Position numbers and translations under genes: made by a program. A stretch of 32,000 bases of DNA, from positions 2,220,001 to 2,252,000 of the forward strand of contig NC_008312.1 in NCBI RefSeq assembly GCF_000014265.1, written 5' to 3'. Shown in pieces: positions 2,887 through 31,889 of the stretch. This DNA comes from Trichodesmium erythraeum IMS101 (GTDB lineage: Bacteria > Cyanobacteriota > Cyanobacteriia > Cyanobacteriales > Microcoleaceae). Each line of letters opens with the position of its first letter. Position 1 is the first letter of the stretch. The notes beneath the pieces were generated by a model, which searched no databases, had not been told where the DNA came from, and saw nothing but the letters and a program-made list of their open reading frames with translations.

Positions 2887-2906
2887 ATTTACTACTCCAA
2901 GAAAAC

Positions 2907-6610: not shown

Positions 6611-6623
6611 AATCAAGAATATG

Positions 6624-7235
6624 TCAATTAGCAATTCTCAATAATTCTACATCAAAAATAAGAGTAGCATTAGGAGGTATGACTCCACCAGCACCACGGG
6701 AACCATACCCTAAATCCGATGGTATAATCAACTTTCGACGTCCACCAACTTTCATACTACCTACTCCTTCATCCCAACCCTTAATAACTTGACCTACCCC
6801 AACTTTAAATTGGAAAGGTTGATTGCGATCGCGAGAACTATCAAACTTAGAACCATCCTCTAAAGTTCCAGTATAGTGAACCACAACTGTCTGACCCCTT
6901 TGAGGAGTAGCACCATCTCCTTCTACCACGTCCACATACTGAAGACCAGAATCAGTAGTAGTAACTTTTTCATCATCTTGAGCCATAATATTTTCTGCCA
7001 TTGTAATTGTTGGATTTAGTATAGTACCTTCTGCCACTTGCTCCTGAATTTCAGTAGAACCTATAGTATCTGGTGTATTTTGAGAAGCAACCACATCTTT
7101 TCCCGAACCTATAATTTGAGAAATAATCAAAACCAAACCACAGACTATTGCTATTCCCAAACTAATAATAATTCCGCGCAAAATTAATCCTCCTAATTTA
7201 ACTCGCAAAAAAAACTGTAAGGGTTTGGTCTCCAA
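6624..7235 (-). CDS. FKBP-type peptidyl-prolyl cis-trans isomerase with N-terminal TM/signal anchor
   Basis: C-terminal [62 protein letters not shown]...LIFDVELL is a canonical FKBP_C domain. The start is uncertain: the called start is TTG, and the first ATG is far downstream. Confidence 0.85.
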
Positions 7236-7398
7236 ATCTCGTTTCCCTAAGGTTTGGTCTCCAAACCCCTAAGATAAGATATTACAACCTATGGACAGAT
7301 TATTATATTATCAACCACAAATGCTTATAAAAAAACCTTTTTATTGTGAGCATCTTGCCCAGTACAACTGTACCTCACCCTTGATAAAATCCCCTTAT

Positions 7399-7725
7399 CT
7401 AACGCCAGTTGCGGTTTTCCAAATCTCGTATCTGACGCTCCAAACGATCCAAACGACCCCGCAGTTCGTCCAATTCCGATTGACGAGGAACTCCTAGATC
7501 CTGCATGACATTCCGCATTTGTCGCTGCATCTGAGTTTCCCAGTTTCCCTGTTCTGACTTAAGTTGCTGCATTATATCATCAACAAAAATCTTAGCTTGG
7601 TCTGGGTTGATCGTACCATCCTTAACCCATCGGTTAGTTACTTCCTGTATTTTTTCTGTCACCAGGGAAGTTGTACCAATGCCTATCATTAAAAGTTGTT
7701 GAAGTAAATTTTCAGTATTATTCAT
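7399..7725 (-). CDS. Small coiled-coil protein, phasin-like (PHA-granule-protein-like) family
   Basis: 108 aa, ATG start, helical. C-terminal ELDELRGRLDRLERQIRDLE coiled coil, as in conserved cyanobacterial phasin-family annotations. Confidence 0.6.
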   Translation of the reverse strand: MNNTENLLQQLLMIGIGTTSLVTEKIQEVTNRWVKDGTINPDQAKIFVDDIMQQLKSEQGNWETQMQRQMRNVMQDLGVPRQSELDELRGRLDRLERQIRDLENRNWR

Positions 7726-7882
7726 AATTTTTGGCCATAGTACATATTTTTAGTCAACTATATTGATTATGATTTATCCCAATACCCACTTTGTTGAGAC
7801 GTAGGACATCTCGCCTAGTTAAATTAAACTTCAAATCAAAGTAGTAATTAAACTTATAAATCTATAATTTGAGATAATCAAA

Positions 7883-8242
7883 ATGTTAAATTGTCCTCGT
7901 TGCCATCAAGCTGTTGATAGTCAGGCGATCGCTTGTCCGTATTGTCAATTTCCTCTGAAAGCTTTTGGTCATCCTGGTATTCCCCTTTATCAAGCGAAAC
8001 CAGAAGAATATTTGTGTAATAAATGCTTCTACCATATAGACGATAGTTGCAATTTTCCCCAACGTCCCTACGCTAAAGATTGTATTCTTTTCCATGACCA
8101 ATCTGAACCTCTTGTACCACATGATAATTATGATACTAATCATAATGGTAGGTTAAAAATTGTCAAATTTTGGTTTCAAAGACATCCTATTTGGTGGTTA
8201 TTGTTAACTGTAATTCTGATAAGTTTTTTACTATCTTTTTGA
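7883..8242 (+). CDS. Zinc-ribbon protein with second Cys4 module and C-terminal TM helix
   Basis: CPRC...CPYC zinc ribbon at the N-terminus, then LCNKCFYHIDDSCNFPQRPYAKDCILF, then the hydrophobic tail WWLLLTVILISFLLSF. Confidence 0.65.
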   Translation: MLNCPRCHQAVDSQAIACPYCQFPLKAFGHPGIPLYQAKPEEYLCNKCFYHIDDSCNFPQRPYAKDCILFHDQSEPLVPHDNYDTNHNGRLKIVKFWFQRHPIWWLLLTVILISFLLSF

Positions 8243-8504
8243 CTATTCCCTGGACTAAATTCATGGGAATTAGTTTGAGAATATTTTTATCCACAACACC
8301 CACTGGACTGACACATCTAACAAAAGTGTAATAAGGTTAGGTAAAGTTGAGGAAAGTAGTAAAATCCCGTCTGGGTAACCCAAAAATAATAAAGCTTTGT
8401 TAGACTGCACTTCGTTCTACAAAGACCATTATTTTTAGGTATGCCATAGCACGACAATAATAAACTTATAACTTCTAACTTCAGGTGATAACTGAGAGCT
8501 ATAT

Positions 8505-10655
8505 TTAAGGTACTTCCAATAACTGATTTTCTTCTGGTACTGACCTTTCTTCAAATACTGCTAAATCAAACCAAAAAGTTGTGCCTACACCAAGTTCACT
8601 TACGAGGTTAACCTTACTATGATGCTTATCAATAATATTTCTAACAATAGACAAACCTAAACCTGTTCCTTCCAAAGTATGAACACGATTTTCAACTCGG
8701 AAAAACCTTTCAAAAATAGCTTCTTGGTCTTCAGGTTCAATACCACTTCCTGTATCTGAAATTTCAATTCTGACAAACTGATTATTAGATTTTAAATTTA
8801 GTTCTGTTGGTCGAGGTGGAGGAGGAGAAACTATCCATCCTCCTTGTTCTATTTGTTCAATTTCTATATCAGATTCTAACAGATAAGCTCTAATTACTAT
8901 TCTACCTCCTGGTTCAGTAAACTTCATAGCATTGCCTACCAAATTAGCAAATACTTGTAGTAATAAATCATAATGACCAACTACAGTAGGCAAGTTAGAT
9001 TCTATATCATAATTTAATTCTATTTTTTTATCTTTAGCATTAAGATGATAAGTTCTTAAAGTTTGTTCTATTGGTTGAGCAACATCAACAGCATTTAGGT
9101 GATAAATCATACAAGATTCTAGACGACTTAAATCCAATACATCATTAACTAAACGAGTCAAACGATCTGTTTCATGATTGGCAGTCTCTAAAAATTCTCG
9201 TCTTTCTACTTCACTTAAATCTTCCCCATATTCATGCAAAGTTTCGATGAAAGATTTAATATTAAATAAAGGGGTTCTTAATTCATGGGAGACATTACTA
9301 ATAAACTGACTTTTTGCGTCATTTAATTCTACTTCTCTAGTAATATCTTGTACAGTCATAGCAATTCCTTTAAGACTATTTCGGTATGGAGAAATAAAAT
9401 CTGTTCCTAGCTTATTTTCATAAAGTGTACATTCATAAACTACAGGACGATTAGCAGAACTACAACTATCGTATGCATCATAAATACAACTTTTACAAAG
9501 AGATTCTGTACCTGATGCTCTGTATAAAAGAACAGTTGTTAATAAAACTCTAATTGTACGTTTATTTGGTTCATCTAAAGTACAACGATATTCACCCCCT
9601 TCTATTTCCCCTGTAGCTATTTGATAAAGTGGTCTATTTAATTCCATCTGTACAGCTACAGGTAAATTATCCGTCACCTTTCCACCAATAACCTTTTTTT
9701 CTTCCCAACTAAAAATACGCCGAGCAGTTGGATTAACTAAAATCAATTGTAAATTAGCATCTAACAATAAAGCGCCATCAGCAATTGTGGAAACTAAGGT
9801 TTCTAACTTTGCTTTTTCTGCCGTTAATTTTTCAATATTTTGCTTCTTATAATTTTCTAACTGTTCCGCCATTTCATTAAAGCTCAAAATCAGTTCCCCT
9901 AGTTCTCTTCCAAAAGATAAGTCTATCCTTTGTTTAAAATTTCCCTGAGCAATATTTTTGACACCTTCCGATAATTTCTTGATTGGTTTAGTAATAATCA
10001 AAGCATGAACAACTGCACCTAAAATTACCATTGCCCAGATCGAAACAAAAACTGCTAAAGTTACATCTCTAGTCAGATTTGAAGAGACAACCACAGTAGG
10101 ATTAGGATTAATTCCAACTGCTAAAACTCCTAAATATTTACTTTCATCAATAAGGGGAACAAAAACATCCGTTAATTGACCATTAGGAGTTAAATGTTGT
10201 CGCACTAGAGGCAAAGCTGAATATTTTTCATCCTCTATATTGGCCATAAAATCTTCTGGCAGTTGAATACGACGACGGAGAGTAAGAGATGTTTTTACCT
10301 CAGATTCTGAGAAGGGAATACCTAAGAAAATCTTTCCTTCTTCATCAGCATAGAGCATATAACGTACACTAGATGTACTTTTGTAGAAAAGTCTGGAAAA
10401 ACGGGCTACTTCGTTGCGATTGCCTTCTGCCATAAGTGGGGCGACATTAGCGGCTAATAATAAACCCAGGTCTCGACCATAACGAGTGTCATTCAGGCGA
10501 GCATCCTCCTGAATAGTATTTACTGCCCAGAAGCTTAAGCTACTCATTAGCAAAGATACTATCAGGGTAATAACTGCCATAAGTTTGCTCTGGAGGGTAA
10601 ACTCAGACCACCAATTAGCAATAATTTCTCCGATTTTTTTGAGGAGGGGAAGCAT
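8505..10655 (-). CDS. nblS: Sensor histidine kinase NblS/Hik33 (DspA) type: 2 TM, HAMP, PAS, HisKA, HATPase
   Basis: N-terminus WWSEFTLQSKLMAV...FWAVNTIQEDARLNDTRYGRDLGLLLAANVAPL matches my memory of NblS/Hik33. H-box FISNVSHELRTPL. G-box DTGSGI...GTGLGLSIV. 716 aa, longer than the ~660 aa I recall for this family, because of two insertions. Confidence 0.85.
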   Translation of the reverse strand: MLPLLKKIGEIIANWWSEFTLQSKLMAVITLIVSLLMSSLSFWAVNTIQEDARLNDTRYGRDLGLLLAANVAPLMAEGNRNEVARFSRLFYKSTSSVRYMLYADEEGKIFLGIPFSESEVKTSLTLRRRIQLPEDFMANIEDEKYSALPLVRQHLTPNGQLTDVFVPLIDESKYLGVLAVGINPNPTVVVSSNLTRDVTLAVFVSIWAMVILGAVVHALIITKPIKKLSEGVKNIAQGNFKQRIDLSFGRELGELILSFNEMAEQLENYKKQNIEKLTAEKAKLETLVSTIADGALLLDANLQLILVNPTARRIFSWEEKKVIGGKVTDNLPVAVQMELNRPLYQIATGEIEGGEYRCTLDEPNKRTIRVLLTTVLLYRASGTESLCKSCIYDAYDSCSSANRPVVYECTLYENKLGTDFISPYRNSLKGIAMTVQDITREVELNDAKSQFISNVSHELRTPLFNIKSFIETLHEYGEDLSEVERREFLETANHETDRLTRLVNDVLDLSRLESCMIYHLNAVDVAQPIEQTLRTYHLNAKDKKIELNYDIESNLPTVVGHYDLLLQVFANLVGNAMKFTEPGGRIVIRAYLLESDIEIEQIEQGGWIVSPPPPRPTELNLKSNNQFVRIEISDTGSGIEPEDQEAIFERFFRVENRVHTLEGTGLGLSIVRNIIDKHHSKVNLVSELGVGTTFWFDLAVFEERSVPEENQLLEVP

Positions 10656-14302: not shown

Positions 14303-15211
14303 AGTTATTATTTAAGAGATAGATAGGGATACTGCTGAGGCAATGCTCTGTTTTTGATATTATGTATTAAAACGCTATTGATGTTACCATCTTAATAGCA
14401 ATTTCTTTAAGTATGCCTACATATTATACTCAATAATTAAATCATATAATCTTATTAATATTAAGTAACTTAGCTTAAGTTTATGAAATTGGTATTAAAT
14501 AAAATTAACTATGCTTTAACAGACACCAAATAATTAAAAACTATTTCTCATTAGATATCTCAAAAAAAAAATTAAGCTATAATTGTAATGAAAATTGTGT
14601 AAAAAATATATATCAATGAATAAGATATTAAAATAGATCAATAAGTACTCACAATAAACCCAAATATTTATTGGTATTACTAATTCTAATTTTATGTCTA
14701 TAATCTTACTAGTAACTATGGGATTAACATAGTATAATAAAGCTTTGATTAAAATAGTAAATCACTCTTTTATAACTATTTTTTCCTACATTTTTAAATA
14801 GTTTCTGGAATAAGCTTAACTCAGTTTACTATAACATAATTATCAAAAAATAAAAGGGGTTTAACTATTTCAAAAAAACTGCAAAGATAATAGAATTATC
14901 TAATTAAAATTTTGGTTGATTAGCAAATATATTCAACAGGATTTAGCTCAGGAGTATTTGGAGAAAATTTTGTAAATTTATAAACTATTCTTCTTGTGAT
15001 AAATCTTGATTAATTGTCATTAAGTATCCTCAATCTGCTTGAGACTTATGATAAGTTGCTTCATCCCAAAATATTGCTAATCTTCTACTATATCTATTGC
15101 GACTAACATGGGATTACTATAGGTAATTATAAATTATTTCTTTGCTTTCCTTTTGCTAACTAAGGAAATAATAATAAAATTTTTATTTGTAAAATACAAA
15201 AGCTTAAATTA

Positions 15212-16372
15212 ATGGTAAAAATGAAAATGAATGAAGAGGAAAAAAAACAACAAAACAAAATTCAGCGAGTGGGTGTTGTTGGTGGTGGTCAATTAGCATG
15301 GATGATGGGGGATGCAGCAAAAAAACTAGGAGTAGATTTAATTATTCAAACTCCTCATCAAGATGACCCAGCAGTATCTATTGCAAAGGATATAATTTTG
15401 GCAGAAATTGATGACCCTCAGGCAACTACTAAGTTAGCAAATATTTGTGATGTGATTACCTTTGAGAATGAGTTTATTAATATAGATGAGTTATCATATC
15501 TTGCTGAAAAGAATGTAATTTTTCGTCCTAGTTTATCTGTGTTGAAGCCGTTATTAGATAAATATGAACAGTTATGTTATTTACGATATTTGGGTTTACC
15601 TGTACCGAACTTTTGGGAGTGGGGAATAGAGATTGAGCCTTTATCTTTCCCTTTGGTATTGAAAGCTCGTCGTCATGGTTATGACGGTCAGGGTACTTTT
15701 ATTATTAAGAATATTGAGAGTTTAAAATCTCAGGGAAATTCAGAATTTTTCATACAAGAATTTATTCCTTTTGAACGAGAGGTTGCTGTTATTGCTGCTC
15801 GTGGAGTTACTGGGGAAGTTAAGGTTTATCCTGTGGTAGAAACTCAACAAGAAAACCAGGTTTGCCAGCGGGTTTTTGTACCTGATGAAAATTTAGAATT
15901 AGTAACAGAAATTGAAGAGATCGCTCAGACTCTCCTTAATAGTTTAGAAGTAGTAGGAGTATTTGGGATAGAAATGTTTATTACTAAAGACAAGAAGGTT
16001 TTAATTAATGAAATTGCTCCAAGAACTCATAACTCTGGTCATTACAGTTTGGATGCTTGTGAAGTTTCCCAGTTTGAACAACATTTACGGGCTGTTTGTG
16101 GTTTACCTTTAGGTAATACTACTCTCAAAGTAAGGAGAGCGGTGATGGTAAATTTATTGGGTTATGAATTTGGGGAAAATTACTACTTGACAAAACGGCA
16201 AATGTTAGAAAAAATTCCTCATGCTTCGGTTTGGTGGTATGGCAAAACAGAATCTCGCCCAGGACGGAAGTTAGGTCATGTGACTGTTTTGCTAGATGAG
16301 GAAAATTTTGAAATTATGGGTCGCAAGGGTGAGGCGATCGCTAATAAAATAGAGAATATCTGGTACACCTAA
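15212..16372 (+). CDS. purK: N5-carboxyaminoimidazole ribonucleotide synthase
   Basis: VGVVGGGQLAWMM, ATP-grasp LKARRHGYDGQGTF, NEIAPRTHNSGHYS, GRKLGHVT. The start could also be the ATG at 15221 or 15227. Confidence 0.9.
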   Translation: MVKMKMNEEEKKQQNKIQRVGVVGGGQLAWMMGDAAKKLGVDLIIQTPHQDDPAVSIAKDIILAEIDDPQATTKLANICDVITFENEFINIDELSYLAEKNVIFRPSLSVLKPLLDKYEQLCYLRYLGLPVPNFWEWGIEIEPLSFPLVLKARRHGYDGQGTFIIKNIESLKSQGNSEFFIQEFIPFEREVAVIAARGVTGEVKVYPVVETQQENQVCQRVFVPDENLELVTEIEEIAQTLLNSLEVVGVFGIEMFITKDKKVLINEIAPRTHNSGHYSLDACEVSQFEQHLRAVCGLPLGNTTLKVRRAVMVNLLGYEFGENYYLTKRQMLEKIPHASVWWYGKTESRPGRKLGHVTVLLDEENFEIMGRKGEAIANKIENIWYT

Positions 16373-16687
16373 AGCTTGCTGTTGCCTCTTTTAGACACTT
16401 TATGACTTTTGACTTTTAAATTTTGAAGTTTGACTGCATAAAGGGGGGTGACAGAAAAAAAATAACCGCTATAATAATCATTAGGTTCTACTATGACGTT
16501 GGTAACTGCCAAAAATGTTTTTTTGACCTACAAATCAAAAAACATGGGAATCTAGATTTTTAAGTGTCAGTAAACTGGGCTTGTATCCAGAAACTTTAAA
16601 CTTAAGCCAAGATACCCACCTGGTATTATCCAGGTCAAAAGCTGAGGTAAGACGGCGTTGCGGTAGACCATTTTTATGTAGAGTAAA

Positions 16688-21048: not shown

Positions 21049-21576
21049 ATAAAGAAGAAGTAAAGAGGAAGAAGGAAGAACTAGTAAATTTTGAAAAAAA
21101 GGGAAAAATAATAGATATCTTATTAATTAGCCATAATAAAAATGCTTTTCTTTTTCTAATTGCTCCCAAGTCCAAATTTCCAATTCTCAATTCCCTAAAG
21201 TTTTTCCACAGTGAATATTCAAAGAGACATAATATAAAATGAATTGGAGGAGCACTTGTTGTAGCATTCTTTTTTCAATGGTTGTATTATAGCATATTGA
21301 AAGTATGTGAAGTCAAAATATTAATTACCAAGTATTTATAGTGCCGGCCTCTTGCTCATTACTGCTGTACCTTACTGAAAATTAAGAGTTTAATACAAAT
21401 TCCTATTTACTAATGCTTTACTGAAATAAAGCTTTAGTTATTAAGTAATTAACATAAAGGGAATAAATGTTTTCTCACGGGGTGACAAGCTAGTTGAAAG
21501 CTATATATAGAAAGGAATTTGTGTTCGGGAACTGAAGAATATTTCAACAAAAAGAAAACGCTTATTGGACTGGGAA

Positions 21577-21615
21577 GGGGTGTAGTGCGAGCGCAGAGCG
21601 CTCGCACTACACCCC
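21577..21615. repeat. 39-nt perfect GC-rich palindrome inside the left TIR
   Basis: GGGGTGTAGTGCGAGCGC-AGA-GCGCTCGCACTACACCCC. Confidence 0.9.
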
Positions 21616-21713
21616 CTACCCATGGTTGATTATTTATTCATTAAAACATTAAAAAAAACTGTTAAAAATATGATAAAAAAGGGTTAATAATTACAAAAAA
21701 AAAAGAAGAAAAA

Positions 21714-22862
21714 GTGAATATATTAGGCTTTTATCAAGACCATATTAAGCAAAAGTTGAGTCCATCTCAAGTAGTAACATTACAAATATTATTATACTTA
21801 ATTTCAGTACATAAAACTGTACAAATATCAAAGCTAACCAATTATTTTCAGCTACCAATTAAATCAGAAAGTAAGCGAAAACTTATGCGAAAGATTTTTA
21901 ACCCTAAAGGAATTAAGTTTACCTATATTTTGGTTCCCTTTAGTCAAAATAATGGTAAAAAATCTCTTCAGCTTTACCTCAGAGTTAGTGTTGATTTTAG
22001 ACCGCACTCAGTGGCAAAATATTAATATTTTAATGATAACTGTAGCTTGGAAAAAGACAGCTTTACCTATATATTGGAAGATTTTATCTCATAAAGGAGC
22101 TAGTAATTTAACCGAACAAAAATCAGTAATTCGCCCTGTATTAAAATTATTGAAAGCACACAAAATAATTCTCACAGCACCCTAGAATTCCACAGTATTT
22201 TCCTGTGCCATTGGTTGAAAGAATATAAAAAAAAAGACGTATATTTTGTCTTAAGACAAAAAAAATCAACTATGATAAAACGAGGGAGAAAATATTGTCA
22301 ACTCTCAGAGTTAAAAGTAAATATCGGTGAATCCCAACTATTATTGAATCAAAAAATTACCAAAATTTTGAAGGTAGGAACATATAATTTACTTGTATAT
22401 AAAAGACAGAAATATCGTCACAATTCTGTTTCAGAGAAATGGTATATTCTCTCCAATTTATCATAGTAATGTGGAAAAGTTAAAAAAATATATAGCCAGA
22501 GAATGGCTATAGAAGCCATGTTTAAGGATTATAAAACTGGTGGTTATAATCTAGAATCAGCAAAAGCCAACGAAACTAGACTTAATAATCTAATTTTATT
22601 AATAGCTATTTCATACACAGTTAGTTCATTTAAAGGACAAGAAATTAAAAACAAAGGAGTTCAAGAATATATATCAAGAACTAATGAAAGAGGTAGAAAA
22701 GAAAGAAGAAACAGTAGTTTTTGCTTAGGGTTATCTAGTATTTATTGGGCAATAAATGATGATTTAATGTGGAAATTAGTAGAAAATTTAATGAGCCTTA
22801 ATCCTCATAAATTACTATATTATCGCAGGGGAATAAAAGCGATGAATAAAGTGGTTAATTAG
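21714..22862 (+). pseudogene. IS4-family DDE transposase, fragmented into at least 4 ORFs
   Basis: The fragments read ...LILDRTQWQNINILMITVAWKKTALPIYWKILSHKGASNLTEQ... (first D region), ...EFHSIFLCHWLKEY..VYFVLRQKK (GDREF region destroyed by a stop and a frameshift near 22185-22200) and ...AIEAMFKDYKTGGYNLE (YREK-type motif). Frames 0/1/0/0 with internal stops. Confidence 0.8.
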
Positions 22863-22955
22863 ACTGTAATTTTTGATTAAAAATTAATTAATAAAGTTAA
22901 GTTTTTTCATGATATTATTCTACTGCACAACTTGAATTATTATTCAACCCAGTTA

Positions 22956-22996
22956 GGGGGTGTAGTGCGAGCGCTCTGCGCTCGCACTACACCCCC
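22956..22996. repeat. 41-nt perfect GC-rich palindrome inside the right TIR
   Basis: GGGGGTGTAGTGCGAGCGC-TCT-GCGCTCGCACTACACCCCC, the inverted counterpart of 21577-21615. Confidence 0.9.
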
Positions 22997-23280
22997 TTCC
23001 CAGTCCAATAAGGATTTTTTTTTATTGAATTATTCCTCAGCTCCTGAAGGTAAATCCCTTTATATATATAGCTTTCAACTGGCTTGTCACCCCGTGAGAA
23101 ATGTTTTACACGATTAAAGCCTTAGAATTATGTTAATTTTATAAATGTTTAAGTGGGGACGTTCTATAGAACATCTCTACTTACTTTCCCTCCAGGGAGT
23201 GGTTAGGAGTGAGTCCCGGACTCAAAATACTAATTAGAAAAATTGTTGAGAAATGGTGTAATTCTGAATTATGCTACACA

Positions 23281-23480
23281 TAGCGATCGCCACATAAGGA
23301 CAGAATAATTATTATAATTCAGTTACCAGGGCAGCTCATAAATTTTCGCAAGAGTTCTGAGTGCTGAGTTCTCATTTCAGCTATAAGTGAGCGATCGCTA
23401 CGTAACCACAGAATAATTATTATAATTCAGCCCAGCTATCAGAGCAGCTCATAAATTTTCGCACATCTAAAAATTTGAGC
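23281..23480. repeat. Two decayed direct copies of the 3' end and downstream region of the giant gene
   Basis: GCGATCGC-ac.taa..ACAGAATAATTATTATAATTCAG...CAGCTCATAAATTTTCGCA occurs twice (cagaataatt at 23301 and 23409). It matches the true gene end cgatcgctacacaagcacagaataattgttctg (cagaataatt at 23666). Confidence 0.75.
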
Positions 23481-23488
23481 CTATTAAC

Positions 23489-23583
23489 TTCTGAGTTCTG
23501 AGTTCTGAGTTCTGAGTTCTGAGTTCTCAGTTCTGAGTTCTGAGTTCTGAGTTCTCAGTTCTCAGTTCTCAGTTCTCAGTTCA
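23489..23583. repeat. Heptanucleotide STR (TTCTGAG/TTCTCAG) x13
   Basis: 13 tandem heptamers with G/C variant order 5G, 1C, 3G, 4C, read directly. Confidence 0.95.
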
Positions 23584-23654
23584 TAAATTTTCCCACCTGT
23601 GAAATTTGAGTCTATTAAATTAGAACTTCTGACTTAAACTATATAGGTCGATCG

Positions 23655-26600
23655 CTACACAAGCACAGAATAATTGTTCTGTTGAATATCAAAATTAACA
23701 TTGTAATATGGGTCTCCCAGATCCATATCAATTTGCCATTTATCTAACAACAACATATAATCAAGCATATCATAATTTTCCTGTCTATGTTTCTCTAATT
23801 TATTATTAATTAAAACACTGCGAGGAGTAAACATAATTCGCTTACCTTTTTTCCGTAACTTCAAACACAAATCAACATCCTGATAATCACAGAAAAAATG
23901 TTCATTAAAACCACCTACCAATTCAAAATTTTCACGACTCACCATCAAACATTTTCTACTTACAGCAGACACCTCTCTTGCACAAACTAAAGAACCTGCA
24001 TAACCATCATCATTAGTAGCAAAACCTCGCATCACATAGTTAACTTTTCCCAACTTTCCTAACACAATACCTGCGTCTTCAACAGTTCCGTCAGGTAAAA
24101 CCAAAAACCCTCCCACAGCACCAATATCAGATTGTTCTGCATAATATAAAAGATGTGTTTGCCAATCTTCAACTGTAGGTTCCAAATTAGTATTCAGAAA
24201 AACAAAATATTCACCCTTAGCAGTTTTTGCAGCTAAATTATAAGCACAAGAATAATTAAATTTACCAGATAAACTTAAAACCTTCACAGCAGGATTTTGG
24301 ATTAAATTATCTGTTCCATTGCCACTAATTAAAATTACTTCATTTTCAGGATAACTAGAAACAGATAATAAATTTTCCAACCATTGATTGAGATTTTCCG
24401 AAATATTAGGAATAGCAATAATCAAACTAATTAAAGGATAATTATTTCTTGGCAAAGGATGAATATTTACCCGATGTCTACCCAAACCAGGTTCCGCCTT
24501 TGCTGCTAAACCAATTCTTTCCAAATGAGTATTAACAGCAGCCTGTTGTAATTTTTCAATATCTGCTTTAGCATCAGCATCTCCCGAAATACTTCCTTTC
24601 ACTTGTCGCCAATGATAAAGATGTTTAGAAATATGAGCAATTTTATTAGTTTGCTCGGAAACTCGTAACATAAACTCATAATCTTGTACCCCATCAAATT
24701 CACTCTTAAAACCTCCAACAGCCACAGCTATTTCTCGACGTAAACATAATAAATGACCGACATACATTACACCACGAAAATATTCGGGGGACCAGTCAGG
24801 TTTAAAGAATGGATGAGTATAATTTAACCCAGAAAAATCAATTTTATCTTCATCAGAATAAACCACATCAAATCCTTCTGCCAGTTTAGACAAACTATTT
24901 TCTAAAGCTGTCGGTGCTAGAGTATCATCATGGTCTAATAAACAAATAAATTCTCCCGTAGCCATTTTTAATGCCTTATTTGTCGCAGCACTAATACCAC
25001 CATTATCTTCTGACAATATAACTTTAATTCTCGACTCTTTTTCTGCTAAACCTGCCAGAACATTTTTAATTTCTAGCTGTTTTGATCCATCATCAACAAT
25101 ACACCATTCCCAGTCAGGAATAGATTGGTTGAGAACACTCAAAACTGTTTCTACAAACCAATCTAAAGAAGAATTCCAAGTAGGGGTAAGGATACTAATA
25201 GAAGGTTGAGAAAAATCTCTTTTTCCTTCTATTGAAATTACTAGATTAATAATTTCCCAGAACTTTTCGACTGTTACTCCTGATAAACCCAATAATTCTT
25301 GTTTTTGTTTTTTAGGGTTTCCCGGCAAATTCACATTTACTTCTGCTAGTTTTTTATCAGTAATTTTGTCTTCCAACCCAGGCAAATTATTAATTTCTGC
25401 CACTGGTTTAGCAGGAGTTTTTTCTGCTAAACTCAACAATTTTTTATCTTGCTTGACAGGAAATAGATTTTGAGTTGGAGTATTTGTATTTCTAGATTTG
25501 AACTTTTCCAAATCTGCTTGAATTTCTTGAATCTCTGTTTGTGATTTTTCCAAATCTGCCGTTATTTCTGTCAGTAACAGAGAAATAGAAGAGGTAGCTG
25601 TAGGAATTATTTCCACACTTTTTTCTGGCTTTTCAATTTTCAATTCTGACTTCTTTTCTTCCTCCTCATTTCCTGTTTTTTCTTCCTTCTGAATATCAAT
25701 TAAAGTAGCTGTAGGAATTATTTCCACAATTTCTTCTGGCTTTTCAATTTTCAATTCTGACTTCTTTTCTTCCTCCTCATTTCCTGTTTTTTCTTCCTTC
25801 TGAATATCAATTAAAGTAGCTGTAGGAATTATTTCCACAATTTCTTCTGGCTTTTCAATTTTCAATTCTAACTTCTGACTTGTAACCTCTGAATTCTTTT
25901 CTTCCTCCTCATTTCCTATTTCTTCTTCCTTCTGAATATCAAATTCTGATTTATGAGTTATGGGTTCTAACTTTCTGATTTCTGACTTCTCAAGGATCAA
26001 CATATCCAGATAACTTTTACAACCTACTCTTCCACACCAAGAACCATAAAATTTTCCCAAGACATCAAAACCAGAATTATTAACCCACTTCAACAATAAA
26101 GACTCCAGAAAACCCATACCTTTTTCTGGTGCATTTAGGTCTTTAGTAAAACCTTCTTGAAGTCGATGAATAAGAGGTTGAGAACTTTTACCTTTAGAAA
26201 TTAACTTTTCTGACTCATGGTTAACTAAGAAACAATTAAATAGCAGACGACCACCTGGTTTTACAACTCGATAAACTTCATCTAAATAATTACGAATTTC
26301 ACTCCCACCCACCTGAGTAAACCTAGAACTAATAAATACAAAATCAAAGCTTTTTGCATAATAAGGAAGTGGTAAATATGAATCTATCTGACGGAAGTTG
26401 CAATGAGGTTTTTGAGTAGTAATATTTTGTTGCGCCCAAGATATTAATTCCTCAGAAAAATCAAATCCTTCATAACGTCCTGGAGATTGCAAATAATAGG
26501 AAAGACCATAAGCTATATTCCCAATTCCACAACCAATCTCTAAAACTTCAGCAGTTGGTTGAAGAGCTACCCTTTGGATAAAATCACCTAAAAATTTAAA

Positions 26601-29600
26601 GCTTCTGGGAATAAAATTTTTTGCTCCCCCATCTATATATTTATCATTAGGAATAGGTAGGGATGGTTGAAATAATTTAAATAGAATATTTCCCTCTTTT
26701 CCTGAGAATATTGGAGTTAGAACAATCAAAGAATTTTGACAATTTTTAAGTTGTGCTTGAGAGAGAGAAATTTCCAGACGAAACCTAGAATTTCCAGCAT
26801 TATTAAGTTGAGGGCGAACTTTTGCTACATCTGGACTAGGTAAACCTAATTCTTGCACAAAAGAAGTAAATTTTTGACCGCCAATAACAACCTTAAAATC
26901 CTCTACAGAACCAAATTTAACCGAACCTACCCAACCAGATACTACTAATTTTTGATTATCAATTCCTACCTTTTCTAAATAACCAAAAGAATCAACCACT
27001 ATTGAGGTAACAAATTTATCAATTGCAGAATATTGCTCAGAATATTGTTGATTTTCAACTTCTGACTTTTGACTTTGACTAAGAGGTTGACCTGCCGTAT
27101 TAATAGCTTCAATTGATTCTATACAATTTGATTGTTTTGAAAGTATAGGATCTTCAGGAAAAGTACCTTGTTTAGGGATATCTAAAGTCTTAGATAAAAC
27201 TCCAACTTGATCATCTTTAAAGATAGGAATTAAATCAATCTGATAATTTTGGAATTGTGAAACTTGTTCTGAATTTAGAGATACTTTGATATGGAATCTA
27301 GCATGATGAGAATTATGAAGATTAGAGTGTATTTTTTTGACATCTGGACTAGGAATACCAGTCTTTAGTTCAAAACTGTTTATTTCTATAGCATCAAAAG
27401 TAACTTTAAAGTTTTCCAAAAAACCATTATTAATATCAGCAACCCAACCTTTAATAGATAATTCATTTTTATTTGTAAATTCTACTTTTTCCAGATATCC
27501 AGTTTCAGAAATAAGTTTAATATCCGGCATTTTCCGATCCGGAGATTGGTTGATAATTTCTGGCTTAGTAGCGATCGCTTCTGGAGACAAATCAAAATTT
27601 TCCTTCAGATTTTTCCGGAGCAATACTATATTTTGATTACCTCTAATTCCCCCCGGAAAATAATCAACTATTTCAAATAAATTAACCCACTTATTTCTGA
27701 CATATTCTTCTGTCTGAAGCGTAATTCCATACCAATCTGGAAAGACATTTTTATATGCTGAAGATGGCATATGTATTAATCCTAATTCTACTAATTTAGG
27801 TGCCATTTCAATAGCTTCCTTAGGACTTCTTAGTTGGCGAGTTGTTATTAGTACAACACCCCCTGGTTTAGTAATTCTTTCCAATTCTTGCAACCATTTC
27901 AACTGCATTTCCTCATTAATATCAGTAAATACTGAGATGAGATAAATAAAATCAAATTGATTATCTTCATAAGGCAAAGGTGGCAATGCTTGGTTAACAT
28001 TAAACTTAGCAAACTTAATATTTTTTTGACACCATGATATAGCTTCAGTATCAGTATCTGTAGCGTATAGAGAAGTAGAATCACTTTCTGAACTATACCA
28101 AATAATTACCCGTCCACAACCACAACCAAAATCCAATACTGATTTAAATTCACTAAAATTTTTACCAATTTTCTGGAGTGCCGTTCTTATATCTATACTT
28201 ATTTGTCTACCTACCTCTAAAAAAGCACTAATTTCAGAGTCTCCATGAACTCGCGTGACTAAATTTTTTAGTGGAAATGATATAGATTTGCCATCAGGTA
28301 AAACTAGATGAGGGGCAACATTCTTATCCTGATTAATAACTTTATAGTTAACAGCTTTATCCCGTCCATCAACAGGAGAAATTACTTTAAGAAGCGGCAA
28401 ACCTTTACGCCCCTGAAAAAAGGGAGTTAAAGCTACAACAGAGCCTATAAACTCTTCAATTTGTGTTTGAGATAAAGTTACTAATAAGTGAAAACGAGCA
28501 ACTTCAGCACTGTCTAAATGGGGAAAAGTTTTTTTAACATCAGGACTTGAGAGACCCAAAAATTGTTCAAAATTTATTAACTTTTGACCTGCCACAGTAA
28601 CTTCAAAACTATCTACAAGACCAGAATTAAATGAAGCTGCCCAACCAGACAAATTTAACTGTTGATTCTTAATTTCTGCAACTTCCAAATTTCCTACCGT
28701 TGCTACAGTTTTATATTTTTGTAGAGGTGAACTTATAAAACTTAATTTTTTCCTAGGAGTTTTTCGTAAATTCAAAGCAGCTTCATAAAGCTCCATATCT
28801 TGACTATTAGCTACTGCTAATTCATCCATTAACTTTTTATCTGACAAGACTTTCTTTTGAAACTCAATATATTCTGGATAGGGATTTCTATTTTGATAAA
28901 TCACCTCATAATCACACCATCCAAAAATACTTTTCAGTTCCAGTAAATCCTCAGCAAAATGTTCTGTAATTCCTATAAAATCAAAATAATCTAAAGACTT
29001 AGCATTTACACAGTAAGCCATCAAATTACTATTACCTTGAGCAAACTTTAATAAACTCTCTTTATTTAAATGATCTTGAGTAGGATTAGACATGTGGCGA
29101 AAACAATAATCAGAAATTAACCTGTGTATCGGTTCTCTTAACCATGTAATTCTGTAAGCATTAGGAAATAATTTGTCATACTTACCTGCCCGAAAATGAC
29201 CCTCAATAACTTTAGTTTGCCAATGAATAGTAGCCGGCATATTATCTTCAAACATATTAGTTTTATCAGTAAGAACTCCTTGAGTTCCATAAACCTGTAA
29301 TAAAACCTGTCTAAAAGCAGTTCCAGCAGCTTTTGGTACATGAACAGAAATCAATTCTACTTGGGGAGTAGTAGTTGGTAAATCATTAGTTTCTGATGTT
29401 TTTAATAAAGAAGATAAAGCAGGAGTAACACCATTTAATAGAGGTTCTCCTTCACGATTTTTTACTAAAGGAATTAAAATAATCAGAGAATCTTTAAATT
29501 CTTGTTGCTGCTGTTTATTCATTGGCAACCTAATAATAAACCGAGCATTATCAGCAGCAGAAATATTAGGATGTGCTTTTTTTACTCCAGGACTAGGAAT

Positions 29601-29795
29601 ACCTTGAGTTAATCTAAATTCTGTTAATTGTTTACTGTCAAATAAAACCTTAAAATTAGTTACCATTTCAGATTCAAATGACAGAACCCATCCACTTAAA
29701 CAAACAGTTTCATTTTCTATTGCTAGTTGGTCTAAAAATCCAGTAGTTGCTGCTAGTTGTTGAGGTTGTTTATCTGCCATTTCAAATTTTTCCAT
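23655..29795 (-). CDS. Giant multidomain glycan-assembly/modification enzyme: X-sulfotransferase-X-SAM MTase-X-X-SAM MTase-repeat/coiled-coil-GT2-GT2
   Basis: Uninterrupted 2046-aa ORF. Approximate domain map in nt:
- X1 29433-29741.
- Sulfotransferase 28770-29360 (HVPKAAGTAF PAPS-type motif).
- X2 28385-28705.
- MTase-1 27610-28300 (VLDFGCGCGRV).
- X3 27195-27510.
- X4 26670-26995.
- MTase-2 25990-26660 (VLEIGCGIGNI).
- E/K repeats and coiled coil 25480-25935.
- GT2-1 24590-25205 (ISILTPTWN, IVDDGS, LLDHDD).
- GT2-2 23800-24435 (ISLIIAIPN...). Confidence 0.9.
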   Translation of the reverse strand: MEKFEMADKQPQQLAATTGFLDQLAIENETVCLSGWVLSFESEMVTNFKVLFDSKQLTEFRLTQGIPSPGVKKAHPNISAADNARFIIRLPMNKQQQQEFKDSLIILIPLVKNREGEPLLNGVTPALSSLLKTSETNDLPTTTPQVELISVHVPKAAGTAFRQVLLQVYGTQGVLTDKTNMFEDNMPATIHWQTKVIEGHFRAGKYDKLFPNAYRITWLREPIHRLISDYCFRHMSNPTQDHLNKESLLKFAQGNSNLMAYCVNAKSLDYFDFIGITEHFAEDLLELKSIFGWCDYEVIYQNRNPYPEYIEFQKKVLSDKKLMDELAVANSQDMELYEAALNLRKTPRKKLSFISSPLQKYKTVATVGNLEVAEIKNQQLNLSGWAASFNSGLVDSFEVTVAGQKLINFEQFLGLSSPDVKKTFPHLDSAEVARFHLLVTLSQTQIEEFIGSVVALTPFFQGRKGLPLLKVISPVDGRDKAVNYKVINQDKNVAPHLVLPDGKSISFPLKNLVTRVHGDSEISAFLEVGRQISIDIRTALQKIGKNFSEFKSVLDFGCGCGRVIIWYSSESDSTSLYATDTDTEAISWCQKNIKFAKFNVNQALPPLPYEDNQFDFIYLISVFTDINEEMQLKWLQELERITKPGGVVLITTRQLRSPKEAIEMAPKLVELGLIHMPSSAYKNVFPDWYGITLQTEEYVRNKWVNLFEIVDYFPGGIRGNQNIVLLRKNLKENFDLSPEAIATKPEIINQSPDRKMPDIKLISETGYLEKVEFTNKNELSIKGWVADINNGFLENFKVTFDAIEINSFELKTGIPSPDVKKIHSNLHNSHHARFHIKVSLNSEQVSQFQNYQIDLIPIFKDDQVGVLSKTLDIPKQGTFPEDPILSKQSNCIESIEAINTAGQPLSQSQKSEVENQQYSEQYSAIDKFVTSIVVDSFGYLEKVGIDNQKLVVSGWVGSVKFGSVEDFKVVIGGQKFTSFVQELGLPSPDVAKVRPQLNNAGNSRFRLEISLSQAQLKNCQNSLIVLTPIFSGKEGNILFKLFQPSLPIPNDKYIDGGAKNFIPRSFKFLGDFIQRVALQPTAEVLEIGCGIGNIAYGLSYYLQSPGRYEGFDFSEELISWAQQNITTQKPHCNFRQIDSYLPLPYYAKSFDFVFISSRFTQVGGSEIRNYLDEVYRVVKPGGRLLFNCFLVNHESEKLISKGKSSQPLIHRLQEGFTKDLNAPEKGMGFLESLLLKWVNNSGFDVLGKFYGSWCGRVGCKSYLDMLILEKSEIRKLEPITHKSEFDIQKEEEIGNEEEEKNSEVTSQKLELKIEKPEEIVEIIPTATLIDIQKEEKTGNEEEEKKSELKIEKPEEIVEIIPTATLIDIQKEEKTGNEEEEKKSELKIEKPEKSVEIIPTATSSISLLLTEITADLEKSQTEIQEIQADLEKFKSRNTNTPTQNLFPVKQDKKLLSLAEKTPAKPVAEINNLPGLEDKITDKKLAEVNVNLPGNPKKQKQELLGLSGVTVEKFWEIINLVISIEGKRDFSQPSISILTPTWNSSLDWFVETVLSVLNQSIPDWEWCIVDDGSKQLEIKNVLAGLAEKESRIKVILSEDNGGISAATNKALKMATGEFICLLDHDDTLAPTALENSLSKLAEGFDVVYSDEDKIDFSGLNYTHPFFKPDWSPEYFRGVMYVGHLLCLRREIAVAVGGFKSEFDGVQDYEFMLRVSEQTNKIAHISKHLYHWRQVKGSISGDADAKADIEKLQQAAVNTHLERIGLAAKAEPGLGRHRVNIHPLPRNNYPLISLIIAIPNISENLNQWLENLLSVSSYPENEVILISGNGTDNLIQNPAVKVLSLSGKFNYSCAYNLAAKTAKGEYFVFLNTNLEPTVEDWQTHLLYYAEQSDIGAVGGFLVLPDGTVEDAGIVLGKLGKVNYVMRGFATNDDGYAGSLVCAREVSAVSRKCLMVSRENFELVGGFNEHFFCDYQDVDLCLKLRKKGKRIMFTPRSVLINNKLEKHRQENYDMLDYMLLLDKWQIDMDLGDPYYNVNFDIQQNNYSVLV
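25594..25926 (-). repeat. In-frame 111-bp tandem repeat x3 (37-aa E/K-rich unit) inside the giant CDS
   Basis: gtagctgtaggaattatttccaca recurs at 25594, 25705 and 25816 (period 111 = 37 codons). The unit encodes ELKIEKPEEIVEIIPTATLIDIQKEEKTGNEEEEKKS. Two copies are near-identical and the third is diverged. Confidence 0.95.
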
Positions 29796-30044: not shown

Positions 30045-31889
30045 TTAAAAACTTTTTTCCAATACTAACAAATCTTCTTTAATAGATGAAGTCCGACCAC
30101 ACCAAGAACCATAAGATTTTTCTAGAACATTAAAGCCTCGTTCTTCTATCCATTGTAATATTAGATTTTCCCTAAAACCAATCCCTTTCTCTGGCAGATT
30201 AATATCTATAGTAAAACCATCCTCTATTTCATAAATAAGCTGTTGAGAACTTTTACCTTTAGTAATCAACTCTTCTGATTCTGAATTAATTAAAAAGCAA
30301 ATTAATAAACATCTCCCTCCCGGTTGTAAAACTCTATATATTTCATCAAGAAAATGACGAACTACAGAACTTTGTAAATGAATAAATAAACGGGAAATAC
30401 AAACACAATTAACACTTGAATTAGGATAAGGAAAAATAAAATCATTGGCAGATATTTTACCTGTAGAATTGTAGATACAGTGATAAATATTGTACCAGTT
30501 AAAATTAAAATTCGGCTTACGAGTCGTAATTTCTTGTTTTATCAAGGAAATAAAATCTTCCGTCATATCAAAACCTTGATAACGACCAGAAGGTTGTAAA
30601 TAATGAACTAAAGTATAAGCTACAGTACCAATATTGCAACCAATATCAAGAATATAGTCTGTTGGTTGTAAACCTAATCTTTGAATTAAACTTCCTAATA
30701 ACTTGAAGGAATTATTAATAAATTGATTACTAATATCTTTCCCAACTATTTCTAGATATTCCCTATCTGGCAGTGGTAAAAGAGGTGTTAATGCTGTTAA
30801 TATAACTATACCCTCACCCCTATTAAACAGAGGAATCAAACAAATTAATGAATGTTTTATTTGATTAATTTGTTCTTGATTTAAAAGAACTTTTATGCGG
30901 AATCTAGCATTACCTGCACCAGATAAACTAGGGTGAATTTTTTCCACATCTGGACTAGGTATATTCAGAGTTTGTTCAAAGAAACTAAAATCTTGATTCC
31001 CAACAGAAACTTTAAATCCTTGCACCATACCAGCATCTAAGGAGGCAACCCAACCAGATAAATATAAAACTTGATTTTTAAGTATTACCCGATCGATAGA
31101 ACCCCAAGTAAGTAAAGGATTAATTTTTCGTTTCTTGCCAATAATATCTTTCTTTTCAGAGTTATTTTGAGTATAGTATTGTATCTCTGATGTTTTTTTC
31201 CGCCGCTCCCGTAAACTTAATGCTTCTTGATAAATTTCTATATCTTCGTGATTTATGGCTGATATTTTACCGACTATTTCTTGGTTAGATAATACTTCTT
31301 TAATTAATAATTTATATTCTAAATAAGGATTAGTATTTGGAGCTTCTAATTCATACTCTGACCAATCTAACATTACCTTAAGTTCATATAAATCCTCACT
31401 AAAAAATTCTTGGATACCCACAAAATAAAAATATTTTAGTTGCTCGTTTTGCAGAAAATTTAATTTGATTAGATTCTGCATTTCTGGTTTTTCAGCAAAT
31501 TCTATAAAACTCAAATTAGTATCTTTGGAATTTCCTAAATATTCTTGATCATTTGCTAGTAATATTTGCCAGCTCTTCCAAAAAAAGTAAAGAGAAACTA
31601 ACCGCTTGATCGGATTCCTCAGCCAAATAATTTTTTTAGCTCCCGGAAATTTTTGATTATATTTTGGAGCAGGAAAATGACCATGAATTATTTTGACTTC
31701 TGGCTTTTGTTTGGTTAACATCCGATTCCGAATCTGACCTTTGTGAGGGTAGTCAAAGAAAATTTCTTCTGAGCTATATACCTGTCTAATAACACCCTTA
31801 AATGCAGTACCAGCAGTTCTTGGTATATGAATTGAAATAATTTCTATATTAGTACGATCAGGTTTTATAGTTTGATTTCTTTGGGTCAT
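30045..31889 (-). CDS. Sulfotransferase-X-SAM methyltransferase, paralogue of parts of the giant protein
   Basis: 614 aa. IHIPRTAGTAF (about 31801-31830). X module LYLSGWVAS...PSPDVEKIHPSL...ARFRIKV (about 30795-31095). MTase ILDIGCNIGTVAY (about 30618-30653). The C-terminal half aligns with X4 plus MTase-2 of the giant protein. Confidence 0.9.
   Translation of the reverse strand: MTQRNQTIKPDRTNIEIISIHIPRTAGTAFKGVIRQVYSSEEIFFDYPHKGQIRNRMLTKQKPEVKIIHGHFPAPKYNQKFPGAKKIIWLRNPIKRLVSLYFFWKSWQILLANDQEYLGNSKDTNLSFIEFAEKPEMQNLIKLNFLQNEQLKYFYFVGIQEFFSEDLYELKVMLDWSEYELEAPNTNPYLEYKLLIKEVLSNQEIVGKISAINHEDIEIYQEALSLRERRKKTSEIQYYTQNNSEKKDIIGKKRKINPLLTWGSIDRVILKNQVLYLSGWVASLDAGMVQGFKVSVGNQDFSFFEQTLNIPSPDVEKIHPSLSGAGNARFRIKVLLNQEQINQIKHSLICLIPLFNRGEGIVILTALTPLLPLPDREYLEIVGKDISNQFINNSFKLLGSLIQRLGLQPTDYILDIGCNIGTVAYTLVHYLQPSGRYQGFDMTEDFISLIKQEITTRKPNFNFNWYNIYHCIYNSTGKISANDFIFPYPNSSVNCVCISRLFIHLQSSVVRHFLDEIYRVLQPGGRCLLICFLINSESEELITKGKSSQQLIYEIEDGFTIDINLPEKGIGFRENLILQWIEERGFNVLEKSYGSWCGRTSSIKEDLLVLEKSF

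Follow-up and report, generated by a model that had tools for sequence, protein, structure and literature searches.

Q115Q6 of Trichodesmium erythraeum joins a PAPS sulfotransferase, two methyltransferases and four Ig-like modules to a GT2 pair related to terminator-polymerase proteins of glycan assembly

Among described glycan assembly proteins, the format closest to the one considered here is that of ORF6 from Klebsiella pneumoniae O7, in which a methyltransferase (MT), a kinase, an immunoglobulin (Ig)-like carbohydrate-binding module (CBM), a coiled coil and two GT2 glycosyltransferase (GT) domains follow one another (PMC11231755), with WbbB and then the WbdD/WbdA pair coming next. The Ig-like module of ORF6(O7), a predicted CBM, has been called unique among terminator enzymes, and ORF6 orthologues have been reported in cyanobacteria (PMC11231755). 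How sulfated bacterial polysaccharides are made is little known. They are typical of cyanobacteria, where only one biosynthetic system, that of synechan, of the Wzx/Wzy type, has been dissected, polysaccharide gene clusters are only partial, and sulfotransferase genes lie in both Wzx/Wzy- and ABC-type clusters (PMC8205485); T. erythraeum has the most sulfotransferase genes (30) among the cyanobacteria listed (Maeda et al., PMC8205485 supplementary file 3). Here we analyse a 32,000-nucleotide stretch of T. erythraeum IMS101 (NC_008312.1, positions 2,220,001 to 2,252,000; 'the window', with positions numbered from its first letter) and, within it, the gene for a 2046-residue protein, Q115Q6, which on balance is probably a derived and expanded protein of the modifier-coiled coil-GT2-GT2 kind, acting as a cytoplasmic multi-enzyme that makes a sulfated and methylated glycan.

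Q115Q6 is encoded on the reverse strand by a stop-free open reading frame (ORF) at 23655-29795. Exact look-up identified the protein as ABG50768.1 / UniProt Q115Q6, whose sole annotation is "Methyltransferase type 11"; if translation began at M6 instead, the protein would have 2041 aa. An earlier note, made from the DNA letters, had likewise seen one uninterrupted ORF here, and had named mis-assembly of several genes as a way in which it could be wrong. At the ~32% GC of the window, stops are ~7.6% of random codons, and the chance of a 2046-codon open frame is ~1e-70 by arithmetic from base composition. The frame is unbroken in four assemblies: the protein of strain GBRTRLIN201 is identical to that of IMS101, and intact copies occur in a Tara Oceans contig (L003; 98% identity) and in ENA assembly ERZ529326, with Met6 taken as the start of the gene. 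Identity between two T. erythraeum assemblies and 98% identity to metagenome contigs rule out mis-assembly. Every module tested is under purifying selection (dN/dS 0.12-0.30), and no membrane segment is predicted (maximum KD19 hydrophobicity 1.21). The architecture reads X-ST-X-MT1-X-X-MT2-spacer-GT2A-GT2B, where ST is a sulfotransferase that uses 3'-phosphoadenosine 5'-phosphosulfate (PAPS), MT1 and MT2 are S-adenosylmethionine (SAM)-dependent, and X is an Ig-like module. In order from the N-terminus, with support from hidden Markov models (HMM), AlphaFold2 (AF2) or the sequence, and with the predicted local distance difference test score (pLDDT) where a model was used, the features are:

23655-29795, reverse strand: whole ORF, 2046 aa (ABG50768.1 / Q115Q6_TRIEI), by exact look-up
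29418-29744, reverse strand: X1, Ig-like beta-sandwich, aa 18-126 (HMM of X modules, 160.8 bits; alignment)
28746-29369, reverse strand: PAPS-type ST, aa ~143-350 (Pfam Sulfotransfer_2 and motifs)
28371-28697, reverse strand: X2, Ig-like, aa 367-475 (HMM of X modules, 153.3 bits)
27591-28298, reverse strand: MT1, class I SAM methyltransferase, aa ~500-735, Pfam core 536-657, motif I VLDFGCGCGR (Pfam and motif)
27174-27503, reverse strand: X3, Ig-like, aa 765-874 (HMM of X modules, 162.4 bits)
26661-26987, reverse strand: X4, Ig-like, aa 937-1045, the copy that was modelled (AF2, pLDDT 93.1)
25971-26648, reverse strand: MT2, class I SAM methyltransferase, aa ~1050-1275, motif I VLEIGCGIGN (Pfam and motif)
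25596-25970, reverse strand: E/K-rich 37-aa repeats, aa ~1276-1400, interrupted by Pro and Gly (sequence)
25494-25583, reverse strand: conserved heptad helix of ~30 aa, aa 1405-1434, LLLTEITADLEKSQTEIQEIQADLEKFKS (AF2 helix, pLDDT 61-74)
25305-25493, reverse strand: K/P-rich linker, aa ~1435-1497, predicted disordered (AF2, pLDDT 25-36)
25236-25304, reverse strand: conserved pre-GT motif QELLGLSGVTVEKFWEIINLVI, aa ~1498-1520, with a short helix (orthologue alignment, AF2)
24426-25220, reverse strand: GT2A, canonical GT-A/GT2 domain, aa 1526-1790 (Pfam; best solved relative K4CP A2)
23658-24425, reverse strand: GT2B, GT-A fold with degenerate donor/metal motifs, aa 1791-2046 (Pfam, motifs, AF2)

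All five catalytic domains named in the earlier note are supported by Pfam, including its PAPS-type sulfotransferase and its two distinct class I MTs. ST matches Sulfotransfer_2 at aa 143-313 with 31.8 bits against a cut-off of 22, and carries a 5'-phosphosulfate-binding motif (5'-PSB; HVPKAAGTAF), a catalytic His (GHF) and a 3'-phosphate-binding motif (3'-PB; WLREPIHRLIS), all kept in six paralogues. Whereas the ST region alone gave no meaningful match to solved structures, a profile of the paralogues aligned the His and the 3'-PB region with human SULT2A1 (E 0.008) and matched heparan sulfate 2-O-sulfotransferase (HS2ST; E 0.06), both hits being weak but consistent. The elements expected of a PAPS sulfotransferase (a family match above cut-off, a PKxxGT 5'-PSB, a His and an RxPxxRxxS 3'-PB) are thus all present. 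Methyltransferase families (Methyltransf_25/11/23) match in two stretches above their curated cut-offs, in MT2 at aa 1084-1186, and the Pfam matches together with a GxGxG motif I place both MT1 and MT2 among class I SAM methyltransferases. The two do not cross-match and hence differ from each other, and their solved relatives in the PDB are generic small-molecule MTs rather than WbdD. X4 and MT2 (aa 936-1271) are 47% identical to the X-MT part of the protein encoded next upstream, ABG50769.1. Catalytic motifs are intact in ST, MT1, MT2 and GT2A.

Distributed among these modifying enzymes are the four copies of X, an unannotated Ig-like module of ~110 aa that the earlier note had overlooked. 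In the AF2 model of X4 it folds as a beta-sandwich, and the top Foldseek matches in the PDB are all generic immunoglobulin-type domains (E >= 0.01, TM-score ~0.5); with no Pfam match either, even at E <= 10, assignment of X to a known family was rejected. An X profile retrieved 427 proteins at E <= 0.001 among 1.84 billion cluster representatives. The full-length matches checked, by Pfam or source name, are MT, GT2 or GT92 proteins, those with a named source belonging to the Trichodesmium clade, and the sampled partial, multi-copy matches are cell-wall amidases with Big_7 Ig repeats and one GH70 glucansucrase. The link between X and Big_7 is indirect only, in that the X profile matches proteins that have Big_7 repeats. 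Outside Q115Q6, at least four further copies lie in neighbouring genes: X recurs in the upstream neighbour, and more divergent X-like modules, whose homology to X was seen when profiles were compared (hhalign 94.7%, E 5.6e-8), occur in three other enzymes of the gene island described below. Such modules are also present in verrucomicrobial proteins with a GT2 pair (di-GT2 proteins), where they sit between a coiled coil and the pair. Each modifying module of Q115Q6 has at least one X before it, X3 and X4 both preceding MT2. The likeliest role of X is to bind glycan or to dock partner enzymes, its position beside glycan-modifying enzymes also pointing to glycan binding, and as a recurrent module it may be a new domain that targets such enzymes to their substrate.

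The C-terminal part consists, as the earlier note had it, of two tandem GT2 domains; the DxD motif that it ascribed to both is found in GT2A (DHDD) but not in GT2B (NTN). GT2A (Pfam match aa 1534-1662; PF00535, 116 bits for the whole protein) has the motifs IVDDGS, LLDHDDTL, YSDED and GVQDYEF, so that the DDG, DHDD and QDYE elements of a canonical GT2 accompany the family match, and among solved structures it comes closest to K4CP, a chondroitin polymerase, through the A2 domain of the latter (E 6e-25). GT2B (Pfam match aa ~1790-1990, 30.4 bits when scanned alone) retains the fold and the base motif QDVDLC, but the DxD position reads N-T-N (FLNTNLE) and the first Asp motif G-N-G (ISGNGTDN), and both donor/metal motifs of a GT2 are hence gone. 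The ISGNGTDN and FLNTNLE readings are those of Trichodesmium, Okeania and Dapis, whereas GT2B of stand-alone members of the family reads VDNETxD and LNNDTE, more than ten stand-alone homologues keeping DND and NDT (DxD-equivalent). GT2B nevertheless shows purifying selection (dN/dS 0.19-0.21 against Okeania). Conserved yet devoid of its donor-binding aspartates, GT2B is probably a non-canonical GT with a structural or acceptor-holding role, and loss of these motifs makes a two-GT polymerase doubtful. The reverse is seen in the distant homologues P0014, P0015 and P0016, whose GT2A-like domain lacks DDG and DxD and whose GT2B-like domain is canonical; from these motifs, either half of the di-GT2 unit seems able to turn non-catalytic in different lineages. 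The best structural matches of the modelled GT2A-GT2B unit are K4CP, PmHS2 and LARGE1, at the domain level only (TM-score ~0.3).

Between MT2 and GT2A the earlier note had described an E/K-rich repeat and a coiled-coil segment. The repeat is an in-frame 111-bp tandem repeat of 2.5 copies, 98% identical, at 25594-25876. Each 37-aa unit contains two prolines and one glycine, and therefore no continuous coiled coil is possible through it, a judgement made from the sequence alone, the AF2 model spanning aa 1395-2046 (mean pLDDT 65, moderate). The copy number is 2.5 in IMS101 and GBRTRLIN201 and one fewer in the Tara contig, so linker length is polymorphic within the species. The coiled-coil segment reduces to a single helix of ~30 aa (aa 1405-1434), followed by ~70 residues with pLDDT < 40, a short helix within the conserved motif QELLGLSGVTVEKFWEII and the two GT-A domains; no extended coiled coil parts the catalytic ends in the model. 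The helix is 63-80% identical among orthologues and kept in all but P0013, whereas the K/P-rich linker differs in length and sequence, the linkers flanking the helix are unrelated, species-specific low-complexity repeats, and the whole spacer varies from 142 to 323 aa. The sequence of the helix, ADLEKSQTEIQEIQADLEKFKS, is similar to the last stretch of the coiled coils of relatives, which are far longer (100-170 aa) and run into an amphipathic "SKFWKLR" helix, a motif reduced to 'EKFKSR' in Q115Q6, and it looks like a remnant of that coiled coil and helix. A long coiled-coil ruler was rejected on the AF2 model and the Pro/Gly content of the repeats; as modelled, the spacer is a short oligomerisation-type helix inside a flexible tether and not an extended ruler.

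The GT2 pair ties Q115Q6 to a wide family, with more than 7000 proteins matching it at E <= 1e-10. Over 99% of the pair, identity is 50-58% to stand-alone di-GT2 proteins from Leptolyngbya, Phormidium, Stenomitos, Chthoniobacterales and Acidobacteria. In 80 metagenome loci, whose neighbours were counted by tblastn, a GT1_4 (GT4-like) gene of ~390 aa directly follows the di-GT2 gene in 64, often with a methyltransferase of ~250 aa after or fused to it (in L013, L014, L017 and L018 too), a small MT being present in 28. The ABC-transporter ATPase gene wzt lies within a few kb in 10 of the 80, wzm being there as well in seven of these ten, and the cap-binding module Wzt_C was found in all four Wzt scanned (L086, L078, L054 and L033). 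In three di-GT2 proteins (L086, L091 and L078), the N-terminal domain is an MT or resembles one, and a 100-180-aa coiled coil and the amphipathic helix come after it. The protein at L033 773-3907 (1045 aa) combines a Sulfotransfer_3 domain (30.5 bits), a ~170-aa coiled coil and GT2-GT2, and its gene precedes those for GT1_4, Wzm, Wzt with Wzt_C and a sulfatase; from its gene content, this locus (773-9516 of Ga0209342_10005173, 69% GC) is a clean candidate for making a glycan that ends in sulfate and is exported by an ABC transporter. Homologues of the L033 sulfotransferase number more than 600, of which many among the best 120 are 300-490 aa long and the named sources are all cyanobacterial. 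In two of the homologues, P0373 and P0429, the sulfotransferase is joined through a ~100-170-aa coiled coil to an amphipathic "SKFWKxR" helix, as in the WbdD format; such a protein is encoded directly after wzm-wzt(Wzt_C) in Scytolyngbya sp. (L100 7390-11242) and within a GT/MT/di-GT2 cluster in Gloeothece citriformis PCC 7424 (L099 10001-18965). Some homologues are annotated as chromosome-segregation, CheA, FlhF or Lpp-like proteins. A Symploca homologue of the first GT of the Trichodesmium island lies in a PGT-wzm-wzt(Wzt_C) cluster. By these sequence relationships, ancestry of Q115Q6 in ABC-transporter, terminator-type glycan assembly is well supported, and the occurrence of sulfotransferase-coiled coil-GT2-GT2 and WbdD-format sulfotransferases beside wzm/wzt(Wzt_C) makes sulfation plausible as capping chemistry for the family.

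Full-length relatives of Q115Q6 occur only in Trichodesmium, Okeania, Dapis and other Microcoleaceae. All begin with X-ST and end with the helix (one relative being without it) and GT2A-GT2B, and the middle is variable, with two to four X and zero to two MTs. The gene belongs to an island of modifying enzymes, which within the window also includes:

30045-31889, reverse strand: upstream neighbour ABG50769.1, 614 aa, ST-X-MT, a paralogue of the N-terminal modules of Q115Q6 (Pfam, X HMM)

On the Tara contig the order upstream is a Nucleotid_trans-like GT, a 618-aa sulfotransferase, a sulfotransferase-Methyltransf_24 fusion, an X-like-Methyltransf_24 protein, a GT2_4-like protein, a 451-aa sulfotransferase and the ST-X-MT neighbour. 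The island holds in total ~5 sulfotransferase and ~5 methyltransferase domains, plus extra GTs. Islands of this kind also occur in Okeania and other relatives, there with a GT1_4 gene and giant proteins that combine tetratricopeptide repeats (TPR) with GTs in addition. Conserved neighbours in relatives, the giant TPR-repeat proteins are 1077-1727 aa long, may serve as scaffolds or in recognition of a protein acceptor, and in L004 also have GT2 and Glyco_trans_1_2 domains:

L004 3827-8914, reverse strand: giant TPR-repeat protein
L009 4648-7881, reverse strand: giant TPR-repeat protein
L017 14680-19863, reverse strand: giant TPR-repeat protein
L018 13549-18573, reverse strand: giant TPR-repeat protein

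PAPS and SAM chemistry is cytoplasmic. In the mechanism that we favour, Q115Q6 would be a soluble or peripheral cytoplasmic multi-enzyme in which GT2A, with all its canonical motifs, adds sugar to a growing, probably lipid-linked glycan, ST and the two MTs sulfate and O-methylate that same glycan, and the X modules bind it or dock partner enzymes. The short conserved helix would probably mediate oligomerisation, and the rest of the spacer would be a tether of variable length that gives reach and sets no fixed distance. Other GTs of the island would supply further linkages, and Q115Q6 and the neighbouring ST and MT genes together would yield a heavily sulfated, methylated glycan, exported by a transporter encoded elsewhere. 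The modifications would probably lie along the chain and may include a terminal cap. The earlier note had proposed sulfation and methylation as capping chemistry, which is plausible for the family, but the island has more modifiers than capping needs, and ~10 modifying domains there, with a variable number of MTs in orthologues, make decoration along the chain likelier than capping alone.

Several points weigh against a multi-enzyme of this kind. Carbohydrate binding by X is suggested only by its fold and position and by analogy to the predicted Ig-like CBM of ORF6(O7), and catalytic inactivity of GT2B only by its motifs. The Wzm/Wzt or Wzx/Wzy genes that the earlier note had thought might flank the gene did not appear: in the window, and within 10-20 kb in the Trichodesmium, Okeania and Dapis islands, wzm/wzt, wzx/wzy, priming transferase and sugar-nucleotide genes were not found, the transporter search being by tblastn with the Wzm, Wzt and PGT of L012 as queries. 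Nor did a hydrophobicity scan find a polytopic membrane protein in the Trichodesmium-clade islands, or a regular-expression scan an ABC ATPase, the same expression also missing the genuine Wzt of L012. Since the clade islands hold no transporter or priming genes, the pathway assignment leans on relatives with no more than 45-50% identity. The IMS101 window also lacks the GT1_4 partner that is conserved in the family.

Other readings draw on the same evidence. The earlier note had suggested that Q115Q6 may be an all-in-one polymerase-ruler-terminator, and in the strict form of this reading GT2A and GT2B would polymerise, the spacer would set the length, and a terminal sulfate or methyl cap would be read by the CBM of Wzt before export. 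The domain order, as in WbbB and ORF6(O7), and the family ancestry stand: relatives with a single MT or sulfotransferase and a 100-170-aa coiled coil adjoin wzm-wzt(Wzt_C), WbdD-format sulfotransferases exist in cyanobacteria, and the helix persists in all but one of the orthologues. The ruler and the linked transporter find no support, and the two-GT polymerase is doubtful, given a helix of only ~30 aa in a spacer otherwise disordered or interrupted by Pro and Gly, a repeat number that varies among strains, the loss of both donor motifs from GT2B and the lack of a transporter among the genes nearby; three modifying modules and ~seven more in the island also go far beyond the needs of a cap, and orthologues have anything from zero to two MTs. 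We therefore regard the strict form as unlikely. The single canonical GT domain and the absence of a transporter from the island would suit a protein that does not polymerise at all, GT2A adding one sugar and ST and the MTs decorating a lipid-linked repeat unit, a glycolipid or a glycoprotein, with a Wzx/Wzy or other pathway encoded elsewhere, as for synechan. The one characterised cyanobacterial sulfation system does sit in a Wzx/Wzy cluster (PMC8205485), and giant TPR-GT neighbours in relatives make a protein acceptor conceivable. Where export genes are linked to the di-GT2 family, however, they are wzm/wzt, no Wzx/Wzy-like polytopic protein is found in Trichodesmium-clade loci, and the two-GT-A unit comes nearest to the bifunctional polymerases K4CP, PmHS2 and LARGE1, though with low TM-scores, so that we think a non-polymerising enzyme improbable.

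The motif loss in GT2B could also mark the IMS101 gene as a partly decayed relic of a rearranged cluster, whose original product is no longer made; the GT1_4 partner missing from the window, the ~1.65 kb of extra DNA with ORF fragments downstream relative to the Tara locus and the unstable linker repeats would fit. Yet the 2046-codon frame is intact in four assemblies, ST, MT1, MT2 and GT2A have kept all their catalytic motifs, and the GT2B loss is common to Okeania and Dapis, hence old, in a domain with dN/dS ~0.2, all of which leaves decay very hard to credit. We return, then, to the derived, expanded multi-enzyme as the favoured account. A more elaborate and decidedly tentative version of it, to which we would give little weight, is an assembly line guided by CBMs: an oligomeric derivative of the WbbB/ORF6 type would elongate the glycan, the X modules would feed the chain to ST and the MTs, and a sulfate or methyl terminus would be the export signal for the CBM of Wzt. 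If true, there would be two firsts, a bacterial glycan that is capped with sulfate and exported by an ABC transporter, and an enzyme that couples polymerisation to sulfation; through its variable repeats the linker would adjust chain length or the density of modification from strain to strain.

The window genes selO, purK, 6S RNA, purD and a histidine kinase gene, downstream of the Q115Q6 gene, are unrelated to it. A perfect-looking heptanucleotide tandem array, TTCTGAG x 13.4 (96% matches), lies at 23489-23582, 73 bp past the stop of the Q115Q6 gene. The gap between selO and this gene (21049-23654) is ~2.6 kb in IMS101 against ~0.96 kb in the Tara contig, and the extra ~1.65 kb, which may be an insertion remnant, contains ORF fragments at 21714-22025 and 22503-22862 with no Pfam match; by eye the fragments in 21714-22862 looked like transposase remnants but, with no such match, they were left unnamed. 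A full-length 6S (SsrS) RNA (Rfam RF00013, 107.7 bits) occupies 16485-16670 on the forward strand, directly downstream of purK (15212-16372). Between a beta-lactamase-family gene and purK, the intergenic stretch 14303-15211 has an unusually low GC content (~0.25). Farther away, 1744-6135 may be a defence-type cluster unrelated to Q115Q6:

1744-2886, reverse strand: 380-aa multi-pass membrane ORF, no Pfam match
2907-3434, reverse strand: 175-aa ORF
3507-5219, reverse strand: NACHT/STAND NTPase
5569-6135, reverse strand: Uma2-family endonuclease

The earlier note knew of no described system with this combination of domains, and none was found in the literature searched, which held no description of Q115Q6 and no proposal of sulfate as a chain terminator. 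New are the fusion of a PAPS sulfotransferase and two MTs to a polymerase, the four-fold Ig-like module and the flexible linker in place of a ruler. Q115Q6 and its simpler relatives tie PAPS sulfation to the ABC-transporter, terminator-type logic known from enterobacteria and provide concrete genes to test. Trichodesmium is a globally important nitrogen fixer, which lends the system ecological relevance; a link of sulfated glycans to its colony formation, exopolymer and capture of dust and iron is speculative (PMC8205485). Multi-enzyme fusions of this kind might also be of use in engineering sulfated or methylated glycans.

In comparison with known systems, made for ORF6(O7) and WbbB by described architecture and not by sequence, Q115Q6 is most like ORF6(O7), with which it shares N-terminal modifiers, an Ig-like module, a helical spacer, two C-terminal GT2 domains and further GTs encoded separately. 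ORF6(O7) differs in its methyl-phosphate cap made by MT and kinase, its one Ig-like module, its long coiled coil and its adjacent wzm/wzt, where Q115Q6 has ST and two MTs, four X, a 30-aa helix in a disordered linker, a degenerate GT2B and no transporter nearby. WbbB (K. pneumoniae O12 / Raoultella terrigena) similarly unites a terminator at the N-terminus, a spacer and C-terminal polymerase GT modules in a single protein (PMC11231755). Its terminator is however a Kdo transferase, its coiled coil an established ruler, and sulfation and methylation have no part in it. The polymerase modules of WbbB are not known to be GT2. WbdD/WbdA (Escherichia coli O9a / K. pneumoniae O3, O5; PMC3482155) likewise use methylation caps and a spacer between terminator and polymerase, but WbdD is separate from the polymerase and has a kinase-MT pair, a long coiled coil and a C-terminal membrane helix.

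In the protein of the L033 locus, too, a sulfotransferase is fused N-terminally to a GT2 pair of this family (~50% identity across the two domains), but that sulfotransferase is of another family, Sulfotransfer_3, and the protein has no X, a ~170-aa coiled coil and two canonical GT2 domains. The synechan (xss) cluster of Synechocystis PCC 6803 (PMC8205485) makes a sulfated polysaccharide with dedicated PAPS sulfotransferases among GT genes; it is Wzx/Wzy-dependent and employs separate enzymes, with no methyltransferases and no ST-GT fusion. In K4CP, PmHS2 and LARGE1, unlike Q115Q6, both GT-A domains are active and modifying modules are absent. By domain order alone, with ST, MT1 and MT2 N-terminal and GT2A-GT2B C-terminal, Q115Q6 falls among the terminator-polymerase proteins; of the other features of that class, it lacks an extended coiled coil of ~100 aa or more, and wzm/wzt with a CBM on Wzt are missing from the Trichodesmium, Okeania and Dapis loci over the 10-20 kb searched. 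Given these two differences and a degenerate second GT, it is therefore not a typical member of the WbbB/ORF6(O7)/WbdD class, but a protein that works like, and descends from, this class.

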